From a virus, in IMG/VR virus record IMGVR_UViG_3300028581_000018, positions 45,450 to 109,449 of that record: a DNA stretch of 64,000 bases; one strand, given 5' to 3'. A program made the translations under genes and the position numbers. Under the pieces are notes generated by a model. It made no database searches, was not told the origin of the DNA, and saw nothing but the letters and a program-made list of their open reading frames with translations. The stretch's first letter is position 1. Every line of letters starts with the position of its first letter. Positions 13,211-61,165 of the stretch are shown one piece after another.

Positions 13211-16200
13211 TTATAAGTATTCAATTGTACCACCCATGCGTTGAATATAAGCAACTTCTTCAGGTGTCAAATCCATTTCATAAGTACCACCCATTTTCAT
13301 CATACCCCCAAATTTAGCAAATCCACTTGACACACCGGGACTAAACTGTTGACGTTGACCCATAAATGATTGATATGGTCTTGACATATCATATGTGTTT
13401 ATGTTAATGCCCTCATCTGGGTTAGCATAAGTTTGTGCAAAGTAGTTATAAGGATCTGTTTCACGGTTTAACATTTCAGCTTGAGCAAGCTCCTGATCTG
13501 CACGATTTTTCAGATTAGTAATTAAATTGGCACCAGCATATCCTATGTCTCCATACTGTGTAACACTTAAAGGATCTTTTCTAAAATTAAGACCAAATGT
13601 TTTCATTGAAGCATCTGGATCAACTTCTTGAGCACGTTCTTTAGCTGTCTTAGTAGGTAACTGCATTGGTTGTGGGCGCGCCCCAACTAAAGCACTATTA
13701 TCAAATGGCTCCATAGCAAATTCAGTGTCACCAAATGTTTTAGCAGACTGACCAGGGTTAGAAATTGAACGTGGTGCTAAAGTTACTTCACTTGCATCAG
13801 GGCCTTGGAATCTAGGTAATCCACCATTTTTATAAAGATATAGTTGTCCCCCGTTTTGTTTATTTTTAAGAGGTGGTGCAACAGGAAAGTTTTCAATAAA
13901 CTTTTTATCTTCTGGATTTCGAGAATCAATATAAACTGCAGTATCTCCTTCTGTACCAAATCTTTCAGTTAAACACTCTAAAGAATATGGTTCAAAGTTT
14001 GTACATCCATAGCTACCAAATCTATTATCAGGTTGACTAAACCTTTTAAGTCTTGATTGATATTCTACTGGATCATGATGTGGTTTTGCACCTATACCCT
14101 GTGAAGGATCCCACGTATAACCAGGTTTTGCTCCTGCACCATATACAACATGCATTGCTAAAGGAGTTGTAGCAATAGGCGCATCTTCTCCAAAAGCAGC
14201 AATAGGTTTTTGATAATATCCAGGATAACCATAAATACTCTTATCGTATTTCATGTTATATGTTCCTGTTGGAGTAGATCTTGCCGCAGGATTGTCTTTT
14301 AAATATGATACTGGATAAGGATTGGCATTAGGATCTGTTTCATAATTTTTACCAGCTAATCCCGTTAATACGGGAAACTTTTGATCAATTTTACCAGCTC
14401 TTACAAAATTGATAGTTCCTGTTGCCTTATCAACAATAACTCCAGATTCAAGATTGCTTCTTAAATCTTTATTTTCATAATAACCATCACCTTGAAATGG
14501 ACTATTACCAGTATTTTTAAAATCAATACCATTTCTTCTTTGTAACAAAGGTGGTATTTTAACTTTTACATTGTTAACCTCTTTAGCATTTTGTTTTTTT
14601 GCTTGGTTAACTACTTTAGGAGTACTTGGCTTTTGATTATTAGATTGATCTATTTGAGAACTTCTAGATGAAACATTAGTAGTTTTTGGTTGTTGAACCG
14701 TTTTAAAATCTTCAGTATTTTTTTTACGATTTATATCATTAACCAGTTGAATATTTCCAGAAAGAAGTTCTTTTTTTAATGTAGAATTTTGTTCATAAGT
14801 ACCAGTATAAGGTTCATCAAAATAATCTTGGAATATTTTTTTTCTAGATTCAAAAGATGGATCATACCCTTTACTCTTTACTATATCATAAAGTGTTGAT
14901 CCACCAGTTTGATATGAATCTTCTTGATAAAAAGATTGTTTATTTCTTGGATTAGGTTGACTAACTTTAAAACTCTCTTCTCTCTTCAATGCATCTACTT
15001 CACTTTGGTTAGTAAGATTAATTGGGCCAGCACCACTTAAATCAATTGGTGTTAGTGATTGTCTCATGTAATTTATAGCATCACTATTAGGTGCAAAATT
15101 GTTGTCAGCTTCCTGACCATATGCACCAGTATAAGAAGGATCTCTTGGTATAGATTGGTTAATACTTTGAGTAGGTAAACCAGTAATACTGGTAGGAGGA
15201 ATTTGTTGTATACCTGGCGTATACTGTGATGGTGGAGTTACTGAATAATCTCTTATATTAGTTTGTTGTGGAGGTGATATATTGTTTGGATCTAATAGAG
15301 GTGGTACACCAATTCTAGCGGGTTTATTAGAAGATGTAGTGCCAGATGTAGTTGATGTTTCTTGTGGAAAATTAAGTGGAGGTAACGATCTACTAAACTG
15401 CATTGACAAGGTTCTAGGATTATTAATATTTCCTAAAAAACCTTTTTTAGCTTCTACGTTAGATAAATAAGATCTGTCTAATGGTATAGTGCCATATACT
15501 TTTTGAGCATCTGCAAAATCTCTAGCGCTTTTTCTTGTAAGACTATACCCACGCGGTTGAAACCAATCATTAGAAATTGGCGCCGCGCCAAACATGCTTA
15601 ACAAGTTACTCATATTTACACTCCTACCTATTCCTGGATATTGTGGAGTAGCACCCCTATTTTGAGCAGCTAGTAGCTGATTAAACTGTTCAGGAGTAAG
15701 TGATATGTTACCCGTATTAGACGTATTACCTGTTTGACTATTCTGAGTGCCTTGAAAAGTTGGTAAACCACCATATCTCATCATAGGGGGTTGGCTAAAG
15801 TAATCCATACTTTGTTCAACTGCTTCGTCAGCCATTGTATTAGCTACATTGCGCTGTATGCCAGCGACGAATTTTTTGAGACGCTCACCGCCATATGAAG
15901 AATCACCAGTAGGTAAACCATCTGTGTTTACCATTTCCTGTGCCATACCGCGCGCAGCTTTTTTAAGCTGAGATGTAAATTTATTACGCCCACGCTTTGA
16001 ACCACCATACATATAATCTTCCTCACCATAATCTGCAGTGGCTGCCTCAACAGCAGCGTTATACTGTTCTTCTTCAGCTTCTAAACCTGCAAGCTCTTCT
16101 GGAGTTGGTGTATTGTAAGATTTTTGATATTGAGCTGGTTGTGCAGATTCATCTTCTTCATCATACATACTTTGTTGTTGCTCATCAACCATTTGATTTT

Positions 16201-43899: not shown

Positions 43900-46104
43900 T
43901 TATTTCATATTTTTAAATGGGCTTCTCCTCATACCAGCTGGTAATAAAGACTTACCCATGTGTCTAAACGGACTATTATTAAATTTAGTCATTTTATCTG
44001 ATTTTACCAATTTAGAGTCATCAGTAATTGTACGTCTTGCATAACCTCTGTTTGTTTGCTGGATTTTAGCAAATGCAACTAATGCAGAAAATGCAACTAA
44101 TCTGTCAACGTTAAGACGATCATGATAAGCCTGCATTTCACGCAAAAGCATAATATCAGGTATCCGCTCTACACCAAACTTTGTGCTAACTATAGAACCA
44201 TCTTCAGCAATATCTTGATCTAGGATCTCTTGAAGATACTCAATAGCATATGACAATAAATGACTTTTAAATAATGTACCTGTGTTTTTCCAACCATAGT
44301 CTGCATACACGGCCCGGTTTGATGATATCTCCTTTAAAAACAGAATTTGATCTTTGGGTACTAGGTATTTTTGTTTACGTTTTAACATCATGTATTGTAT
44401 AAACAAGCTAACGTTGTTTTCTACTAGTGTCCACGCGTTATAATATTCAATAATATTCTCTAGTCTTTCATGTGTTTGTTTAATATCATCAAAGCGACCA
44501 CACCAAGATGCTACTATTTTGTCACCTTCAATATAACTTGTAATGTTTGAACCCTCAACTTTTGTAACTTCCGTAGGAGCTTTATATACAAAAATCGAAC
44601 AGAGCGAGTCAGACGTAGTAGTCTTTCCCTCTCCCACAGGGTCAATTGATGCATAATACATACCAAAAGGCGGACTTTTAACAGGGCGCTCATAAATGAT
44701 AACAACGCTTTCTTTGTTATTTGAGTTCTTAGCAATAGGAAATTCATTAATAGGTAATTTACGGGTTTCTTTCATTGTAATAATGTCGTGCTCATCGCGT
44801 ACAAGCTCCACAAACTCCATTGGGTATTCTTTATCTTGAATACGTTTGATCTGGGCATTAACCAGATGCTGAGGAAACTTTGATTCTTTTCTATAAGCAA
44901 ACGCTTCTTCAATGTTGCGCGGGTGCTGAGAAATACGCAACTGATACTTATCTGCAGGTAACTCTTTTCTCCATATATTAAACTGTTCGTCTAATGCAGT
45001 TAAAGCTTCTTCTACTTTAGAATTACCAAATGCATCAATGAATGGTGGCATTGACCATTGCTCTGGAATAAATAACCCTGATCTACCAAGAGTACCGTCT
45101 TTGTCAATAAGTGTAGTTTCTACAGAATAAATGTCATTTATATCTGGTTTGAGAATCATCTCTTTTAGTGGCTCACACTGGTCAAGATCACCAACAGAAC
45201 CCGCTGCTATAAACATACCACTAGTAATAAACCCAGATTTCATTGCAGGGCGTATATACTCAAAGGTATCATTCATCTTTGGTGCAATACCTGCTTCTTC
45301 ATGAAAGAAGTATTTACATGGGCCACCAACACCATTTGTAGGATCCTTTTCAAATGACATACCTTGAATAGTACCTTTAAGACCAACCTCGGTTTTACGA
45401 TTACCCTTTTTAACCTCAATCTTTTGCTGCCACATTAATGTTTTATCTGGGCTAAATGGTCTATACCAAGCTGTATGCTCATTTAAAAAAGCAGCATACT
45501 CGTCTAGCATTTTCCAGGTACCTTTCTCATTAATGTAATCTTTAAGACTAGCACCTATTTTTAAGGTGATACCTTCTTCAAACCATATTTGATTTATAAA
45601 TTTAGCGGAGTGAAAATATGAACTAGCTATCTGACGCTTTTTTAATATTGCTGAATGCTTGTAGTGTAACTCAGCTAGTAACTCATATAATGCCATATGA
45701 TACTGAGCATCTCTAATTTTAGCAAAACCAAAGGTGTTTTCTTCTTTATCATAAATAGGTAAGAAGTTTAACCACATATAGTAGTCTCTACATATATACC
45801 ATGTTTTACTACCAGAGATAATTATTGTTCCATTTCTATTCTTGTTTTTTTGATCATCCCAGTATGTAACAAAGTCTTTGCTCTTTGTAGGAGACGCACA
45901 GTAGTAGTTTTGTTTATTGAAGATTGTAGCCTGCTCATTAAATATTGCAGTATCTTCATTAAATTCATACTTCCCGGGCTCCTTAAAAAGAGGTAACAAG
46001 AACTCTTTAAATTCATCCCTGCTACCAAATTCTGTTACTTCCCAGTTGCCATTACGCCAGGTTGGTATTCTCTCATAAAACTTTAAACCACTTCTACTGA
46101 TCAT
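43900..46104 (-). CDS. terL: Terminase large subunit
   Basis: Walker A-like LKKRQIASSY, Walker B FFHEEAG, and nuclease motifs ASIDP and NVDRLVA. Confidence 0.93.
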   Translation of the reverse strand: MISRSGLKFYERIPTWRNGNWEVTEFGSRDEFKEFLLPLFKEPGKYEFNEDTAIFNEQATIFNKQNYYCASPTKSKDFVTYWDDQKNKNRNGTIIISGSKTWYICRDYYMWLNFLPIYDKEENTFGFAKIRDAQYHMALYELLAELHYKHSAILKKRQIASSYFHSAKFINQIWFEEGITLKIGASLKDYINEKGTWKMLDEYAAFLNEHTAWYRPFSPDKTLMWQQKIEVKKGNRKTEVGLKGTIQGMSFEKDPTNGVGGPCKYFFHEEAGIAPKMNDTFEYIRPAMKSGFITSGMFIAAGSVGDLDQCEPLKEMILKPDINDIYSVETTLIDKDGTLGRSGLFIPEQWSMPPFIDAFGNSKVEEALTALDEQFNIWRKELPADKYQLRISQHPRNIEEAFAYRKESKFPQHLVNAQIKRIQDKEYPMEFVELVRDEHDIITMKETRKLPINEFPIAKNSNNKESVVIIYERPVKSPPFGMYYASIDPVGEGKTTTSDSLCSIFVYKAPTEVTKVEGSNITSYIEGDKIVASWCGRFDDIKQTHERLENIIEYYNAWTLVENNVSLFIQYMMLKRKQKYLVPKDQILFLKEISSNRAVYADYGWKNTGTLFKSHLLSYAIEYLQEILDQDIAEDGSIVSTKFGVERIPDIMLLREMQAYHDRLNVDRLVAFSALVAFAKIQQTNRGYARRTITDDSKLVKSDKMTKFNNSPFRHMGKSLLPAGMRRSPFKNMK

Positions 46105-55813: not shown

Positions 55814-56017
55814 ATGAGCAATTCTAAGCCTTCTTTTACACCGCGTAAAGTACGCGTTGACCTGTTCTCTGTTGCTTTAGCCGACGATAAAGCCTTGACT
55901 GCTATGCAGACAAAGCTTAATCAATGGCTTACTGCAGGAACATTGGTCAAGTACCAAATACATACGACAAGCACTCATGCTTTGTTTAATGTATGCCGAC
56001 GTAAAGACGCTGAATAA
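55814..56017 (+). CDS. Early hypothetical protein
   Basis: Likely start MSNSKPS at 55814, between the motif and a terminator. Confidence 0.65.
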   Translation: MSNSKPSFTPRKVRVDLFSVALADDKALTAMQTKLNQWLTAGTLVKYQIHTTSTHALFNVCRRKDAE

Positions 56018-56085
56018 GCGTCTTTTTTCTTTGTAGGAAGCCGCAAGGCATTTCTTTTACCTCTTAACAATTAACCCTATATCTT

Positions 56086-56370
56086 ATGAGAACTCCATTC
56101 GGATTTTACAAAACGCCTTTTGGCACAGCCTTGCATTTGCGCTACAAAGACAAAGAAAGCGCAGACCTCATTAGCGAATGCCTTGAGCGCTCTACAATTT
56201 GGCTCGGCAAGAACGACTGCTGGCACATTGAAGGCTTGATTAAGCCTGGCTACGAGCAACTTACCAGAAAAGCCATTCTGCTAAATCGCTCTCGCACATT
56301 ATCTAAGCAGCAGCGGGAAATTCTTGACGAAATCAATGCTATTGACCAGGCTATTGACTTAGGCTACTAA
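56086..56370 (+). CDS. Early hypothetical protein
   Basis: Motif upstream, terminator downstream. Confidence 0.65.
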   Translation: MRTPFGFYKTPFGTALHLRYKDKESADLISECLERSTIWLGKNDCWHIEGLIKPGYEQLTRKAILLNRSRTLSKQQREILDEINAIDQAIDLGY

Positions 56371-56377
56371 CGCATAC

Positions 56378-56402
56378 GCCCCGCATTAAGCGGGGCTTTG
56401 CT
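56378..56402 (+). terminator. Intrinsic terminator
   Basis: GCCCCGC attaa GCGGGGC ttt. Confidence 0.7.
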
Positions 56403-56454
56403 TATTCTTCGCAAGGGCATTTCTTTTATAACTTAACAATTAAATCTTTTACCT

Positions 56455-56664
56455 ATGAAAGCAGTTATCTATCTACTCAAAGCGTGGTTTGTAGCCCTAT
56501 TAACCGCGTTTGCCCTACCATTTAGCCTTAGTCTGTTGGCTGTATTGACAACAGACATTACCTTTCACCAAGTGTTCCACTCTGAATTGTTTTGGTTACC
56601 ATTTGGCTTCATATTGGTTATAATGTTCATTGTAATATGTGGATTTGAACCATATGAAGATTAA
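56455..56664 (+). CDS. Early small membrane protein (two TM segments)
   Basis: Two hydrophobic segments. Confidence 0.65.
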   Translation: MKAVIYLLKAWFVALLTAFALPFSLSLLAVLTTDITFHQVFHSELFWLPFGFILVIMFIVICGFEPYED

Positions 56665-56689
56665 TATTAGGTTTAGGGTTTAAGTAATT

Positions 56690-56722
56690 GGCTCCGCAGT
56701 AATGCGGGGCCTTTTGCTTTTT
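56690..56722 (+). terminator. Intrinsic terminator
   Basis: GGCTCCGCA gtaa TGCGGGGCC tttt. Confidence 0.75.
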
Positions 56723-56835
56723 AAAGAGCGGGAGTGGTTAGACGCAGTGCCCATCTCGGGGGCCATTTATCTTAATCCAGCATGCTTACCTCGACGCGGC
56801 AAGGCATTTCTTTTATTACTGAAACCTTATATCTT

Positions 56836-57048
56836 ATGATCAAACATGCACAAACGGTTGTCACTAAACAAGAGTATTTTGACACCACGCTGCGGAATGG
56901 CGAAACAATCCCTGTTCGTATCGAGCGCGTAATCTATCATCGCACCAAGACGATGACTGTACGCAAATGGTGCTTGAACTCTGGTATGATCATCGACGTG
57001 TTCCGTGATTTGCCTGCACCACCTGAGTTCGCAATCGTGGTCAAGTAG
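56836..57048 (+). CDS. Early hypothetical protein
   Basis: Likely start MIKHAQ at 56836. Confidence 0.6.
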   Translation: MIKHAQTVVTKQEYFDTTLRNGETIPVRIERVIYHRTKTMTVRKWCLNSGMIIDVFRDLPAPPEFAIVVK

Positions 57049-57050
57049 CC

Positions 57051-57083
57051 AAGCATAAGCCCCATTTGGGGCTTTGCTTTTTT
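57051..57083 (+). terminator. Intrinsic terminator
   Basis: AAGCCCCA tt TGGGGCTT plus a T-run. Confidence 0.7.
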
Positions 57084-57158
57084 ATTTGCAATACTATTAG
57101 GGCATTTCTTTTATTTCTTAAGGCGCTATTGCCACAAAACCCCATAAAATCAAATCAA

Positions 57159-57692
57159 ATGGGACAACTCAAAGCGACGCTAAACGGCGTCTACAATCGT
57201 AACGGCGAAATCGTCAACCGTTATGTGGTTTCAGGTTCAGCAGCAGACATCGCTGAATTTAAGAAAATCCAAGGTCAATACTTTCGCGAAGACACGCAAG
57301 GTAGGCCCTTGTACTTTCGCCCAAAGTTTGACCCACAAGGGCGACCTCACCCCTCGACGATGCTCATTGAGCCCAATTATCGTGGCGACGGCTTTGTCCC
57401 TGTGTACGACACTATTCTCGCTGACGCAGAATACGCCGAGTCAATTGGCGGTGTCGTAGGACAAGAACTCGGTAAGGCTCTTGCCCTTGAGTTACTCGAA
57501 AAGCGTCGCGCTCTTCGTAGCAATACTCGCGCCGTGGCTCTTGACACGCCTGAACCCATTGAGCAACCGCTCGTTGATGAACAACCCATTGACGACGATT
57601 TCAGCGGGAGCGGGTTAGACGACGAGCCTGTTGCTGAAAAGCCCAAAGCTAAAGCCAAGGCTACCGCAACACCTGATTTGGGGGACATCTAA
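57159..57692 (+). CDS. Early protein with an acidic disordered C-terminal tail
   Basis: Likely start MGQLKAT at 57159; ends ...DDEPVAEKPKAKAKATATPDLGDI. Confidence 0.65.
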   Translation: MGQLKATLNGVYNRNGEIVNRYVVSGSAADIAEFKKIQGQYFREDTQGRPLYFRPKFDPQGRPHPSTMLIEPNYRGDGFVPVYDTILADAEYAESIGGVVGQELGKALALELLEKRRALRSNTRAVALDTPEPIEQPLVDEQPIDDDFSGSGLDDEPVAEKPKAKAKATATPDLGDI

Positions 57693-57710
57693 TCACCCGT
57701 TTGGGTGCAC

Positions 57711-57747
57711 AAGCAAGGCAGGTCTCACACACCTGCCTTGCTTTTTC
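57711..57747 (+). terminator. Intrinsic terminator
   Basis: AAGCAAGGCAGGT...ACCTGCCTTGCTT plus a T-run. Confidence 0.8.
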
Positions 57748-58261
57748 TACATTATCCTTTTTTTTCACCATACTATTATGGCATTTCTTTTTCTTCGCAG
57801 GCCCACAGCACAATATCCACGCGCAGCGGGAGTGGGGTTGACACCAAAAAATAGGAAATCGTATCTTGTTGATTATCAAATCCCTAGAGTGAAACCAAAA
57901 CCTCCACTCCCACTCATCACTAGATACAAAATACAAAATTGTTTACGCTGTAACATACGCTGATTATCAAGTAGTTAGTCTCATTTTCCCACCGCGTGGA
58001 TAAACTCTTGTAAACCCTATTGTTTACGCTTTACATTGTTTGCGTATATTCACTGTTGGTAGAGAACTGCATTTATATCGTCAATTACTTTAAGTAACAC
58101 GACGTAAGTGTCTGAGTATCAGTGAGTGGGATACCATATACCCCTTATTATCTAACAATTGATAATCAAACTAATCTTGTATACTTCCTAGTTTAACTAC
58201 TGGATATAGCTTATCTAACATAACTAATTCAACTAACATAACTCTTAAACTCTAATGCTTT

Positions 58262-58498: not shown

Positions 58499-58667
58499 CA
58501 ATTAAATTCACCGCATGAACAAACGATTGTGGTACTATTCTAAAATGGGGTGATGACCTACATCAACAACCTACAGTGCGGGGCAGCAATCCTCGTCGCA
58601 ACTAGCATGACTAACCAATAATGTCTTGCACACTTCCTAAGCACGAATTAAACTGCTTCATCATTTT

Positions 58668-58787
58668 CCCTTTGCACACTCACTAGTGAGCAGTTGTAAT
58701 ATGACCATTCTCGTAAAAGTTCCCTTAAATGTGGGTTGAGATTTACTCTATGGAGGGCGATAATATATTACAACTGAGTGCAGAGGG
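58668..58787 (+). ncRNA. Structured RNA motif, copy 1
   Basis: CCCTTTGCAC/GTGCAGAGGG outer stem and CAGTTGTAAT/ATTACAACTG inner stem; repeated at 59385. Confidence 0.6.
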
Positions 58788-59089
58788 ATTACAATATATC
58801 AACTGTAAATAACTTAATTAGGCTTTTTAACCTTTTGTGCCTGAATAAGTTTACACGAATTAGTAATAATTCTGGGGTTGTTGATATTAAACAAAAGTCT
58901 GCCTATTAAATAGGGAAGCTGCAACAGGCGTTAAATCGTGCGAGTAATAGCAGCATACAAGGATCGCAACCTTGGGAAACAAGTATTTACGTGCAAAGAG
59001 GGAATTTGATAGAAATATCAATAATCGACTGTATTTATACAGGAAGACAACTTAATGTACTAAAGGAATACTTGTTTCTTTTAATTTGT

Positions 59090-59332
59090 ATGTCAACACC
59101 TATACATAAAATCGTTTTTATCTTCAATTCAACTAATACTAAACAATTAGAAGAAGATACTAACAAAGTTAAAATGATTATTAAACGTAATTGTGAAGTT
59201 GTTACTGGCCCTGTATGTTTTAAACATGAAAGACAGCTTACAGCTTACATTAAGTTTAGTAATACATTAAATAGATTAATGGAATTTAAAAACCATAAAT
59301 CTGTTAATGTGCATATTTTAACTAAATCCTAA
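59090..59332 (+). CDS. rpsJ: Ribosomal protein uS10/NusE homologue lacking the ribosome-binding loop (80 aa)
   Basis: Manual alignment to a remembered S10 sequence: KIVFIFNS with KIRIKLKS, VVTGPV with VVSGPI, and HERQLTAYIKFSNTLNRLM...VNVHI with YKRLIDIYSSTAKTVDALM...VEVEI. Confidence 0.65.
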   Translation: MSTPIHKIVFIFNSTNTKQLEEDTNKVKMIIKRNCEVVTGPVCFKHERQLTAYIKFSNTLNRLMEFKNHKSVNVHILTKS

Positions 59333-59384
59333 TAAAAAGGTTGGTTAATGCTGGAATAACCATAAAGCATTATTTTTAATTTTT

Positions 59385-59497
59385 CCCTTTGCACTAACCG
59401 TAAGGTGAGCAGTTGTAATGTTACCTATTTAGGTTATGAAAAGACATTGGCGAGTTTTATACTCATTAGTCTTAACATTACAACTGAGTGCAGAGGG
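59385..59497 (+). ncRNA. Structured RNA motif, copy 2
   Basis: Same arms as 58668..58787, with a different interior. Confidence 0.6.
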
Positions 59498-59740
59498 TAA
59501 ATAAAAAACTCAATAACTTCCCAAGATGTTGAGAGCACAAGTTTTTCTTTGATAATGAGGAGTATAGCCTCACAGTCCGTAGTTTTATAACTAAACCCGT
59601 CTGAGCAGCCCACGCTTATAATATCAAAGTTTTAGGTGTAAAACACAGGATTTTATCTGGTAGACTTCATTTATCAGAGGCTTTATGGTGAGGCTGAAAC
59701 CATTTTTTATTAACCATTTAACCTCTAAAACAAATACATC

Positions 59741-60049: not shown

Positions 60050-61165
60050 ATGACACAGAATTTTGGAAACTACTATTCACCTGAAAATCAAGAAAAAATT
60101 CAGCAAGTTCAAGCGTTAGAAGATAAAATCGCTCGCAAAATAGCATGGAAAAAGTTGAGTTTAGGTATAGGTTATAACATTACTGAGAAAGATGGTAAGT
60201 TATACTTTTCTATAACATGTTATACACCATCCATAGGCGTATATGGTCAAACATATATGAAAAGACAAACAGAAAATGGTTTGACTTTTGATGGTAAGAA
60301 AGTTAGATTTTGGTTTGGTAAAACTGACTGCTTCCTTAATATGAGCCAACATGACCTTGCTGTAGTGCTTAAAGCATTAAAAATAGACTGGCTTTTATCA
60401 AAGAAAGATACGTTTATTGTTGATCACGCAGTTTCAAAACCTACCATACTAGCAAAGATTTTATCTTTTAAGATTACAAACTTTACAGATTTGACAAAGT
60501 TTCTTATCAAAAATTATAAACTCAGATGCTCGGCAGCAACTTTTGATAACTACGTTACAGACAATTCACATTTATATTTCTTGAAGAAGATAAGCAGGCT
60601 TACAGAAAATGTAGATGAAAATGCAAAAGTCTATTTTGCTGGTACCAATGATTATCAGAACTTAGAAACGCATATCCTCATGCAAGATGTTCTAAATCAA
60701 GCAGAAACCCTCGAGGAAAAAGTTGATTTAAGATGGTCAAGTAAACGTTTAAATGAAGTTCATACTGATTTTACAAGTAGATTAATGTTGTACGAAACAG
60801 ATGCTGTTCCTGAAGACTATTTTGGTATACCAAAAGTGCAGAATATAGCTAACTTGCACGGTATTGAATACATTACGACTAGTAAACGTCTTTACATTGA
60901 AGGTTACACGTTAAAACATTGTGTGTATACCAGCTACGGAGACATTACCAGAAGAAAACAATACCTGGTTTTTCACATTGATGGTCATACACTGGGACTA
61001 AGATTTAGTAAACCTCTGGATAGCAAATCTGTGGTTGCAGAATGGGATCAACTTTATGGTAAGTTTAATTCTAGTCCTGATGATGAAACCACAGTTATAG
61101 CAAAAAGGTTTGTAGAAGAGTTAAACAATGTTCTTCAAGAAGAAAACTGCTTGCTTTCTGTTTAA
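60050..61165 (+). CDS. PcfJ-like domain protein
   Basis: LNEVH...LYIEGYTLKHCVYTSY...QLYGKFN. Confidence 0.75.
   Translation: MTQNFGNYYSPENQEKIQQVQALEDKIARKIAWKKLSLGIGYNITEKDGKLYFSITCYTPSIGVYGQTYMKRQTENGLTFDGKKVRFWFGKTDCFLNMSQHDLAVVLKALKIDWLLSKKDTFIVDHAVSKPTILAKILSFKITNFTDLTKFLIKNYKLRCSAATFDNYVTDNSHLYFLKKISRLTENVDENAKVYFAGTNDYQNLETHILMQDVLNQAETLEEKVDLRWSSKRLNEVHTDFTSRLMLYETDAVPEDYFGIPKVQNIANLHGIEYITTSKRLYIEGYTLKHCVYTSYGDITRRKQYLVFHIDGHTLGLRFSKPLDSKSVVAEWDQLYGKFNSSPDDETTVIAKRFVEELNNVLQEENCLLSV

Follow-up and report, generated by a model that had tools for sequence, protein, structure and literature searches.

S10 (uS10, NusE) is a textbook moonlighting protein, with one surface for the ribosome and a second for antitermination and transcription-translation coupling. 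To our knowledge, these two roles have been separated so far only by an engineered deletion of a loop. The 22-residue loop (E. coli 46–67), a long β-hairpin that reaches into the head of the 30S subunit, is the ribosome-binding element of S10. Only the transcription role can do without this loop, and a variant in which it is replaced by a serine still supports antitermination by lambda N. NusE is the active partner, and NusB is the loader. The engineered NusE-Δloop protein binds NusG-CTD and RNAP through α1, α2, β1, and β4, on the side opposite to that for NusB and the ribosome, and engineered Δloop constructs of E. coli, Aquifex aeolicus, and Thermotoga (3D3B, 3R2C/3R2D, 2KVQ, and 2MEW) bind NusB, BoxA, NusG-CTD, and RNAP and support antitermination. 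The Nus interfaces are conserved in Bacteroidota. Viruses are also known to carry genes for ribosomal proteins: phage-encoded bS21, bL12, bL9, bL31, bL33, bS6, uS9, and uS15 have been described, and these are full-length, exchangeable proteins under purifying selection (Mizuno et al. 2019, PMC6375957).

The locus described here lies in the window, i.e., the whole stretch of 64,000 nucleotides that was analyzed, which corresponds to positions 45450–109449 of a 109,449-nt IMG/VR record estimated to be 91% complete. The window contains an ORF (P0001; 59090–59332, + strand; ATG start, 80 codons plus stop) assigned here to a loop-less uS10/NusE homolog. Compared to the engineered Δloop proteins, the phage protein has the same predicted fold and lacks nearly the same segment, but it is natural, ~20–25% identical, carries a deletion that is ~4 residues longer, and is without H15 and the PIPLPT motif. 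The cellular uS10 proteins of Bacteroidota (e.g., 7JIL chain o) are the closest sequence relatives found and align over the full length; unlike these, the phage protein lacks residues 42–67, is encoded outside a ribosomal operon behind its own leader RNA, and forms a separate family. It shares the viral location and the purifying selection with the phage-encoded ribosomal proteins listed above, but in contrast to them it has lost the ribosome anchor. The likeness to lambda N with nutL and to the HK022 put RNA is an analogy of layout only, in which a gene for a small basic protein directly follows a conserved structured RNA close to where an early operon begins; S10/NusE belongs to the lambda complex. 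The sequences are unrelated, and neither boxA nor boxB was identified, BoxA-like words being at chance level. The leader can also be likened to the leaders through which ribosomal protein operons regulate themselves. Both the carriage of ribosomal protein genes by phages and the moonlighting of NusE are known; the present case adds a dedicated RNA and a natural truncation that is unusual. No homolog was found by tblastn among the 50,697 deposited phage records of INPHARED, uS10 goes unmentioned in the main text of the survey by Mizuno et al. (2019) of ribosomal proteins that viruses encode, and full-text searches of the literature turned up no description of a uS10 or NusE from a phage.

Relationship of the phage protein to uS10

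The original prediction had aligned the protein by eye with both halves of S10. This likeness is not significant by itself, because the single 80-aa sequence gave no S10 (PF00338) match in Pfam and matched only an archaeal S10, with an E-value of 0.3 but in the correct register, in the PDB. It became significant once relatives were added, and the register proposed by eye turned out to be right. The homologs comprise 22 close (63–99% identity) and five distant (32–46%) sequences, and a profile search gave 38 clusters; the family consists of ~39 metagenomic clusters, and all members are 74–92 aa long. A 21-sequence profile made from close relatives and distant members gave 124 matches in the PDB, and the best 60 of the 124 were all uS10. 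The top match was S10 of Flavobacterium johnsoniae (7jil_o, E = 1.9e-8), which was aligned in two pieces (residues 4–48 of the query with residues 3–47 of the chain, and 45–75 with 70–100), with residues 48–69 of the chain being skipped. The engineered Aquifex NusE-Δloop (3r2c_J) was aligned in a single piece with the same profile (E = 1.8e-6).

As a reference for Bacteroidota S10, 113 rpsJ genes were collected with a back-translated pattern and reduced to 60 distinct sequences. Comparison of the 39-member family with this reference by hhalign gave a probability of 97.1% and an E-value of 7.7e-11 over 74 columns with 26% identity. The alignment contains a single gap of 26 residues, S10 residues 42–67 (E. 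coli 43–68), located at the ribosome-binding hairpin, with GPVCF opposite GPIPL and KHERQL opposite S-Y-K-R-L-I. The jump from GPVCF straight to KHERQL, which the original prediction had explained by the absence of a loop of ~25 residues, therefore corresponds to this one gap. The deletion is common to the entire family, because each member has only 74–92 residues. A search for longer or fused forms of the family found none, which is weak evidence. Weak matches to PF00338 were obtained for eight of 23 members, a precomputed match exists for one member, and the JGI automated naming calls four members "ribosomal protein S10".

The family also has a motif, C-x-K-H-Q-R-Q-L-x-x-x-I-K, that is similar to the conserved helix of S18, raising the question of whether the protein is a relative of bS18 instead of uS10. 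When a shallow 23-sequence profile of close relatives was used, bS18 (9t0z_R) was the first match (E = 1.9e-4), just ahead of F. johnsoniae S10, and 11 of 23 members gave weak matches to Pfam S18 (PF01084; best E = 0.036). This likeness is confined to the motif CxKHQRQL, whereas the likeness to S10 extends from end to end, and with the more diverse profile S18 disappeared from the best 60 of the 124 PDB matches. In addition, the S18-like motif is predicted to be a β-hairpin inside a β-α-β-β-α-β fold, not a helix, and structure searches brought back S10 but no S18. We consider a bS18 identity hardly credible and rejected it, since only a local motif suggests it, the match is lost with a deeper profile, and the predicted fold is S10-like.

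The structure predicted by AlphaFold2 from the family alignment (pLDDT 88.5) has the β-α-β-β-α-β fold, with β1 at residues 6–13, α1 at 17–33, β2 at 42–44, β3 at 47–54, α2 at 57–65, and β4 at 73–79. In the model, a two-residue turn (K45-H46) takes the place of the 26-residue hairpin of S10. A Foldseek search of the PDB with this model placed loop-deleted NusE on top (3r2d_J, 3r2c, 3d3b_J, and 2kvq_E, the last with a TM-score of 0.87 and an rmsd of 1.2), and the first chain other than S10 appeared at rank 40. VIA-align over 48,161 chains also placed uS10 first (Z = 13.4, rmsd of 1.1 over 73 residues), followed by designed ferredoxin folds (Z ~11) and S6 (~8). The fold is a common one, as 45 chains scored Z ≥ 8. 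The ESM Atlas, which uses its own lower-confidence model, returned only generic ferredoxin-like and S6 clusters, with S6 nearest, and among the viral structures of BFVD no S10-like one was found (the best was the papillomavirus E2 DNA-binding domain, TM ~0.6). Because the fold is common, the case for S10 is built on the sequence profiles and the structure together.

The commonness of the fold, the S6 cluster nearest in the Atlas, and the failure of the single sequence in Pfam would fit a small phage protein with a ferredoxin-like fold that resembles S10 by convergence, or a captured gene fragment that is decaying and has no role. Both are very improbable. Full-length sequence profiles, not the fold alone, point to S10 with E-values of 1e-8 to 1e-10. 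Across the ~39 clusters the length is conserved and no frameshifts occur, pairwise dN/dS values are 0.32–0.85 (below 1, with rather low dS), and the gene possesses a dedicated conserved leader. The gene is under purifying selection, which is moderate rather than tight. The profile comparisons (hhalign and PDB), Foldseek, and VIA-align agree, with uS10 on top in both the profile and the structure searches, so that the claim of a uS10 homolog beyond a generic ferredoxin-like fold was upheld. These analyses led us to conclude that the 80-aa protein is, almost certainly, a true loop-less uS10 homolog and a diverged paralogue.

The phage and its host

Genes for the large subunit of a terminase and for a major head protein are present in the window, on a minus-strand block of 55 kb, showing that the S10 homolog is encoded by a phage. 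The terminase is ~25% identical to those of Crassvirales and is related to terminases of Flavobacterium and Cellulophaga phages; these relationships identify the phage as a divergent crAss-like virus. Of the words sampled from the region, 60–100% were present in DNA sequencing runs from sediment, a lagoon, and lake water. The phage has a freshwater habitat and originates from lake water rather than the gut. Its host probably belongs to the freshwater Bacteroidota.

The S10-like gene lies in a plus-strand block of small ORFs adjoining the strand switch. Its neighboring ORFs match no Pfam families, and the phage genome encodes no NusB or NusG. Just past the strand switch, 56001–58000 forms a GC-rich island (45%, compared to ~35% elsewhere), the small ORFs of which gave no Pfam or PHROG matches. 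Downstream of the gene, a 371-aa ORF (60050–61165) showed a weak, sub-threshold PcfJ-like match (E = 0.0015). A group I intron (RF00028, 71.8 bits, E = 5e-16) is located outside the window, at 15613–15850 (+) of the phage genome (G000; locus L140).

The leader RNA and its cassette

Alignment of five loci (the window, L001/L007, L004, L005, and L006) revealed a structured leader RNA of ~135 nt that ends at the start codon of the S10-like gene (58953–59092, + strand). The alignment consists of five sequences only, including a relative with 45% protein identity. A closing helix of 12 bp (58976–58987 with 59067–59078) surrounds two hairpins, CTGTA/TACAG and TTGATA/TATCAA, the latter of which carries a GNRA loop in two of the loci. 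The leader also contains an invariant hairpin, AAGG.TCGCAA.CCTT, and the junctions AAAGAGGKAAT and GGAAGACAACTT show little or no variation. Over the 27 pairs, 95.6% of the cells are paired, compared to 37–47% when the 3′ partners are slid, and 11 pairs are changed on both sides, a covariation as high as which was seen in none of 500 shuffles. A covariance model of the leader (R1) found one copy in G000 (E = 3.9e-28) and one in the viral record G001, each before the S10-like gene, and gave no significant match in two Crassvirales genomes. Rfam contains no family for the leader, the flanking hairpins, or the 3′ element described below. The leader is co-conserved with the loop-less S10 gene in the five loci. 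That it is a new structured RNA is well supported, and the loop-less S10 is its candidate protein partner. A longer in-frame ORF starting with GTG at 58991 was rejected, as this codon falls within the conserved non-coding RNA and is not supported by the N-termini of the relatives. The dedicated leader had been missed by the original prediction, and its presence raises the possibility that the protein works with, or is controlled by, its own RNA.

Comparison of the window with L001, L004, L005, and L006 gave dS values of 0.25–0.39 in pairs with dN values of 0.11–0.24. The low synonymous divergence relative to the non-synonymous one hints at a constraint on the S10-like mRNA itself.

The leader RNA, the ORF, and a 3′ hairpin form a cassette. 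Only 58957–59380 is common to the five loci, and no neighboring ORF is common to them. The 3′ element follows the stop codon (59339–59379, + strand; sequences read directly), and the homology ends at 59380. Its stem TGGTT/AACCA (59342–59346 with 59358–59362) covaries in four loci, being CGGTT/AACCG in L004 and L005 and CAGTT/AACTG in L001. An invariant pair, AATGCT/AGCATT (59347–59352 with 59366–59371), stands ahead of ATTTTT and could be a pseudoknot or a weak terminator stem; a terminator scan found none near the gene, the 3′ element missing the criteria of the scan. At the other end, an optional non-coding 5′ extension (58790–58952, + strand) is present with ~83% identity in L004 only and is not conserved in L001, L005, or L006; by blastn, 58790–59380 of the window matches 365–978 of L004. 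A wastewater metatranscriptome contig covers 58796–58977 of an L004-like variant. The 3′ half of the ORF (59163–59342) occurs at a depth of 3.6 among the contigs of one lake metatranscriptome, which is no proof of transcription, and the uncovered parts are uninformative.

L001 is part of G001, a 41-kb viral record. The S10-like proteins of L001 and the window are 63% identical, while the only terminase-like match between them is 23% identical, suggesting either transfer of the cassette from phage to phage or an unusually strong constraint on it. In this comparison the cassette looks like a mobile unit of the moron type. The idea that the cassette is a group I intron was dropped, since it has no Rfam match and the boundaries of homology fit a gene cassette, not an intron within a gene.

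In the window, the cassette is bracketed by two copies of a branched hairpin: the upstream copy of ~120 nt (58664–58787, + strand; fold z of −5.0) abuts the cassette, and the downstream copy (59381–59497, + strand; fold z of −6.8) starts one base past it. Constant arms (CCCTTTGCAC/GTGCAGAGGG and CAGTTGTAAT/ATTACAACTG) enclose a variable core. The genome contains no further copies; the bracketing occurs in the window phage only, and the hairpins are absent from L004. Lake metatranscriptome contigs carry the same arms with other cores, one of them at a depth of ~720 (3.6 for the ORF), which suggests an abundant RNA family. The next stretch (59498–59648) contains a 45-nt motif with a hairpin, AAAAAACTCAATAACTTCCCAAGAYRTTGAGRGCACMAGTTT, and, ~80 nt further on, AAAGTTTTAGGTGTAAAA. 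The AAAAAACTCAATAACTTCCCAAGAYRTTGAGRGCACMAGTTT motif is ~90% identical to intergenic sites in ten records of Suoliviridae crAss-like phages. It is upstream of the S10 cassette in L005 and downstream of it, before the next gene, in the window, and contigs from RNA libraries span 59477–59647. The element at 59498–59648 may be a promoter or leader module common to crAss-like phages.

Possible roles of the loop-less S10

The residues kept as in Bacteroidota S10 are K7, I8, S14, L20, and G35-x-V-V-T-G-P-V, in addition to R48 (E. coli R72), L50, Y53, T59, D61, and L63-M64 (L87-M88), and, in β4, V72, V74, and I76 (E. coli V96/V98/I100). In the numbering of Bacteroidota S10, the common residues are G-x-V-V-T-G-P, R71, Y76, T82-x-D84-x-L86-M87, and V95/V97/I99. 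Within the family, R48 is invariant, and L63 and M64 are conserved in 95% and 64%, respectively. R72 is the site of nusE100, and α2 and β4 belong to the face used for NusG-CTD and RNAP. Judging from these residues, this face (α1, α2, β1, and β4) is kept in part. It is altered too, since the outward-facing basic residues R6 and K8 of β1 are replaced by valine and isoleucine in most members.

The residues on the side of NusB, BoxA, and rRNA are strongly conserved within the family and are unlike those of cellular S10. The family has its own invariant residues (S14, K18, C43, and K45), and F44 is a further family-specific invariant. K18 sits opposite R16 of E. coli and Aquifex, at a position where Bacteroidota S10 itself has methionine or asparagine, and the equivalent of H15 is threonine or asparagine. 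Of the universal G-P-I/V-P-L-P-T motif, G-P-V is retained and is followed by C-F-K in place of P-L-P and by the deletion, so that the NusB-side motif reads GPVCFK against GPIPLPT. In the Aquifex ternary complex, H15 hydrogen-bonds to E81 of NusB, and the H15/R16 pair shapes the U8 pocket for BoxA together with NusB (Stagno 2011).

With a two-residue turn instead of the ribosome-penetrating hairpin, the protein would not be a stable component of the ribosome, and from the loss of the anchoring loop we infer that it probably works off the ribosome. A ribosome-directed role would have the protein enter the S10 site of the assembling or mature 30S subunit, either poisoning the maturation of host ribosomes or making phage-biased ones. 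Phage-encoded bS21 and bL12 do enter ribosomes (PMC6375957). The globular core of S10 is retained according to the AlphaFold2 model and hhalign, and the yeast Rps20 (uS10) Δloop protein, a eukaryotic laboratory mutant, still enters pre-40S particles and is present in stalled ones, as stated in the title of PDB entry 6RBE. On the other hand, S10 is anchored to rRNA mainly by the loop, and the adjoining PIPLPT motif is replaced. The ribosomal proteins favored by viruses are exchangeable ones that bind loosely, and the main text of Mizuno et al. (PMC6375957) does not name S10 as one of them. The ribosome-directed role is less likely because both the anchor and the neighboring motif are gone, and we regard it as distinctly improbable.

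Off the ribosome, the protein would act on the transcription elongation machinery of the host, as engineered NusE-Δloop does. Such a NusE-like action is predicted tentatively, as the likeliest single activity but one that falls somewhat short of an even chance. The premise of the original prediction, that the engineered loop deletion keeps antitermination and that the loop is the ribosome-binding element, is confirmed in the literature. Its further suggestion of a link to UpxY and capsule operons found no support in any result, and the phage is not of gut origin. Since the α2/β4 face for NusG-CTD and RNAP is kept, the protein could occupy the KOW domain of NusG or RNAP, which would deprive Rho of the access that NusG assists, blunt NusG/Rho-dependent termination, and uncouple ribosomes. 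Alternatively, it might nucleate an antitermination complex of the Nus type, possibly on its own leader RNA. In either case, the outcome may be that host RNAP is helped through the very long leftward middle/late block, by analogy with the crAss-like phage phi14:2, in which the rightward early genes are transcribed by a virion RNAP and the leftward middle and late genes by host RNAP; in these terms, the S10-like gene is part of the early-type block.

Several observations speak against the NusE-like action. As far as can be read from the residues, the face on the NusB/BoxA side is remodeled (H15 to threonine or asparagine, and PIPLPT to VCFK plus the deletion). The natural deletion exceeds the engineered one by ~4 residues, R6 and K8 of β1 are replaced in most members, the fold is widespread, with S6 nearest in the ESM Atlas, and the dN/dS values point to no more than moderate constraint. 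The phage's own RNAP may transcribe the early block, and we know of no link between that RNAP and Nus factors. Prediction of a complex with NusB of Flavobacterium sp. P21 (L130:886–1827) gave a score of 0.01, which speaks neither for nor against binding, as NusB was folded without an alignment and the host was guessed. Candidate boxA words of Flavobacterium, GTTCCTTGAGAGA in the rrn leader and GTTCATTGACATA in the 16S–23S spacer, resemble TTTTCTTTGATAA at 59543. This resemblance was rejected as evidence, as such words occur at chance level in the genome (17 vs 12 ± 4 and 13 vs 9.4 ± 2.9).

The leader RNA probably provides the protein with a binding or regulatory site of its own. In the main rival explanation, the protein would be an RNA-binding protein with phage RNA as its real partner, either its leader or other structured RNAs such as introns or the flanking hairpins, and would serve as a translational autoregulator, an RNA chaperone, or an RNP subunit with no involvement of Nus factors. 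We consider this explanation rather unlikely, although a number of features are consistent with it. The leader accompanies the gene in all five loci and has no other copy in the genomes, and ribosomal proteins often bind leaders in the mRNAs that encode them. The loop-less S10 is a strongly basic protein, and its most conserved family-specific residues (K18, K45, H46, and R48) are themselves basic and belong to the surface through which S10 contacts rRNA and, together with NusB, BoxA and dsRNA. The genome is also rich in structured RNA, with one confirmed group I intron in addition to the hairpin elements. The leader may equally be a riboswitch-like or processing element that is independent of the protein. 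RNA binding is, moreover, compatible with the NusE-like action; lambda N also binds its own leader. The combination of the two, in which the loop-less S10 and its cis-acting RNA would form a phage-specific device of processive antitermination or anti-Rho activity for host RNAP, appears unlikely to us, if conceivable. As the leader has an obvious candidate partner, binding and regulation are directly testable with a few purified components.

A loop-less S10 that is natural, conserved, and encoded by a virus would mean that evolution has removed the same segment as the laboratory did. If the combined action with the cis-acting RNA is true, the protein would be the first natural counterpart of the laboratory NusE-Δloop, and phages of Bacteroidota would have split off the moonlighting half of S10 and made a system like nut/N from a ribosomal protein. 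The loop-less S10 would also give a ready-made probe for the biology of Nus factors in Bacteroidota, where they are little studied, and could reveal how crAss-like phages steer host RNAP on their long late operons.
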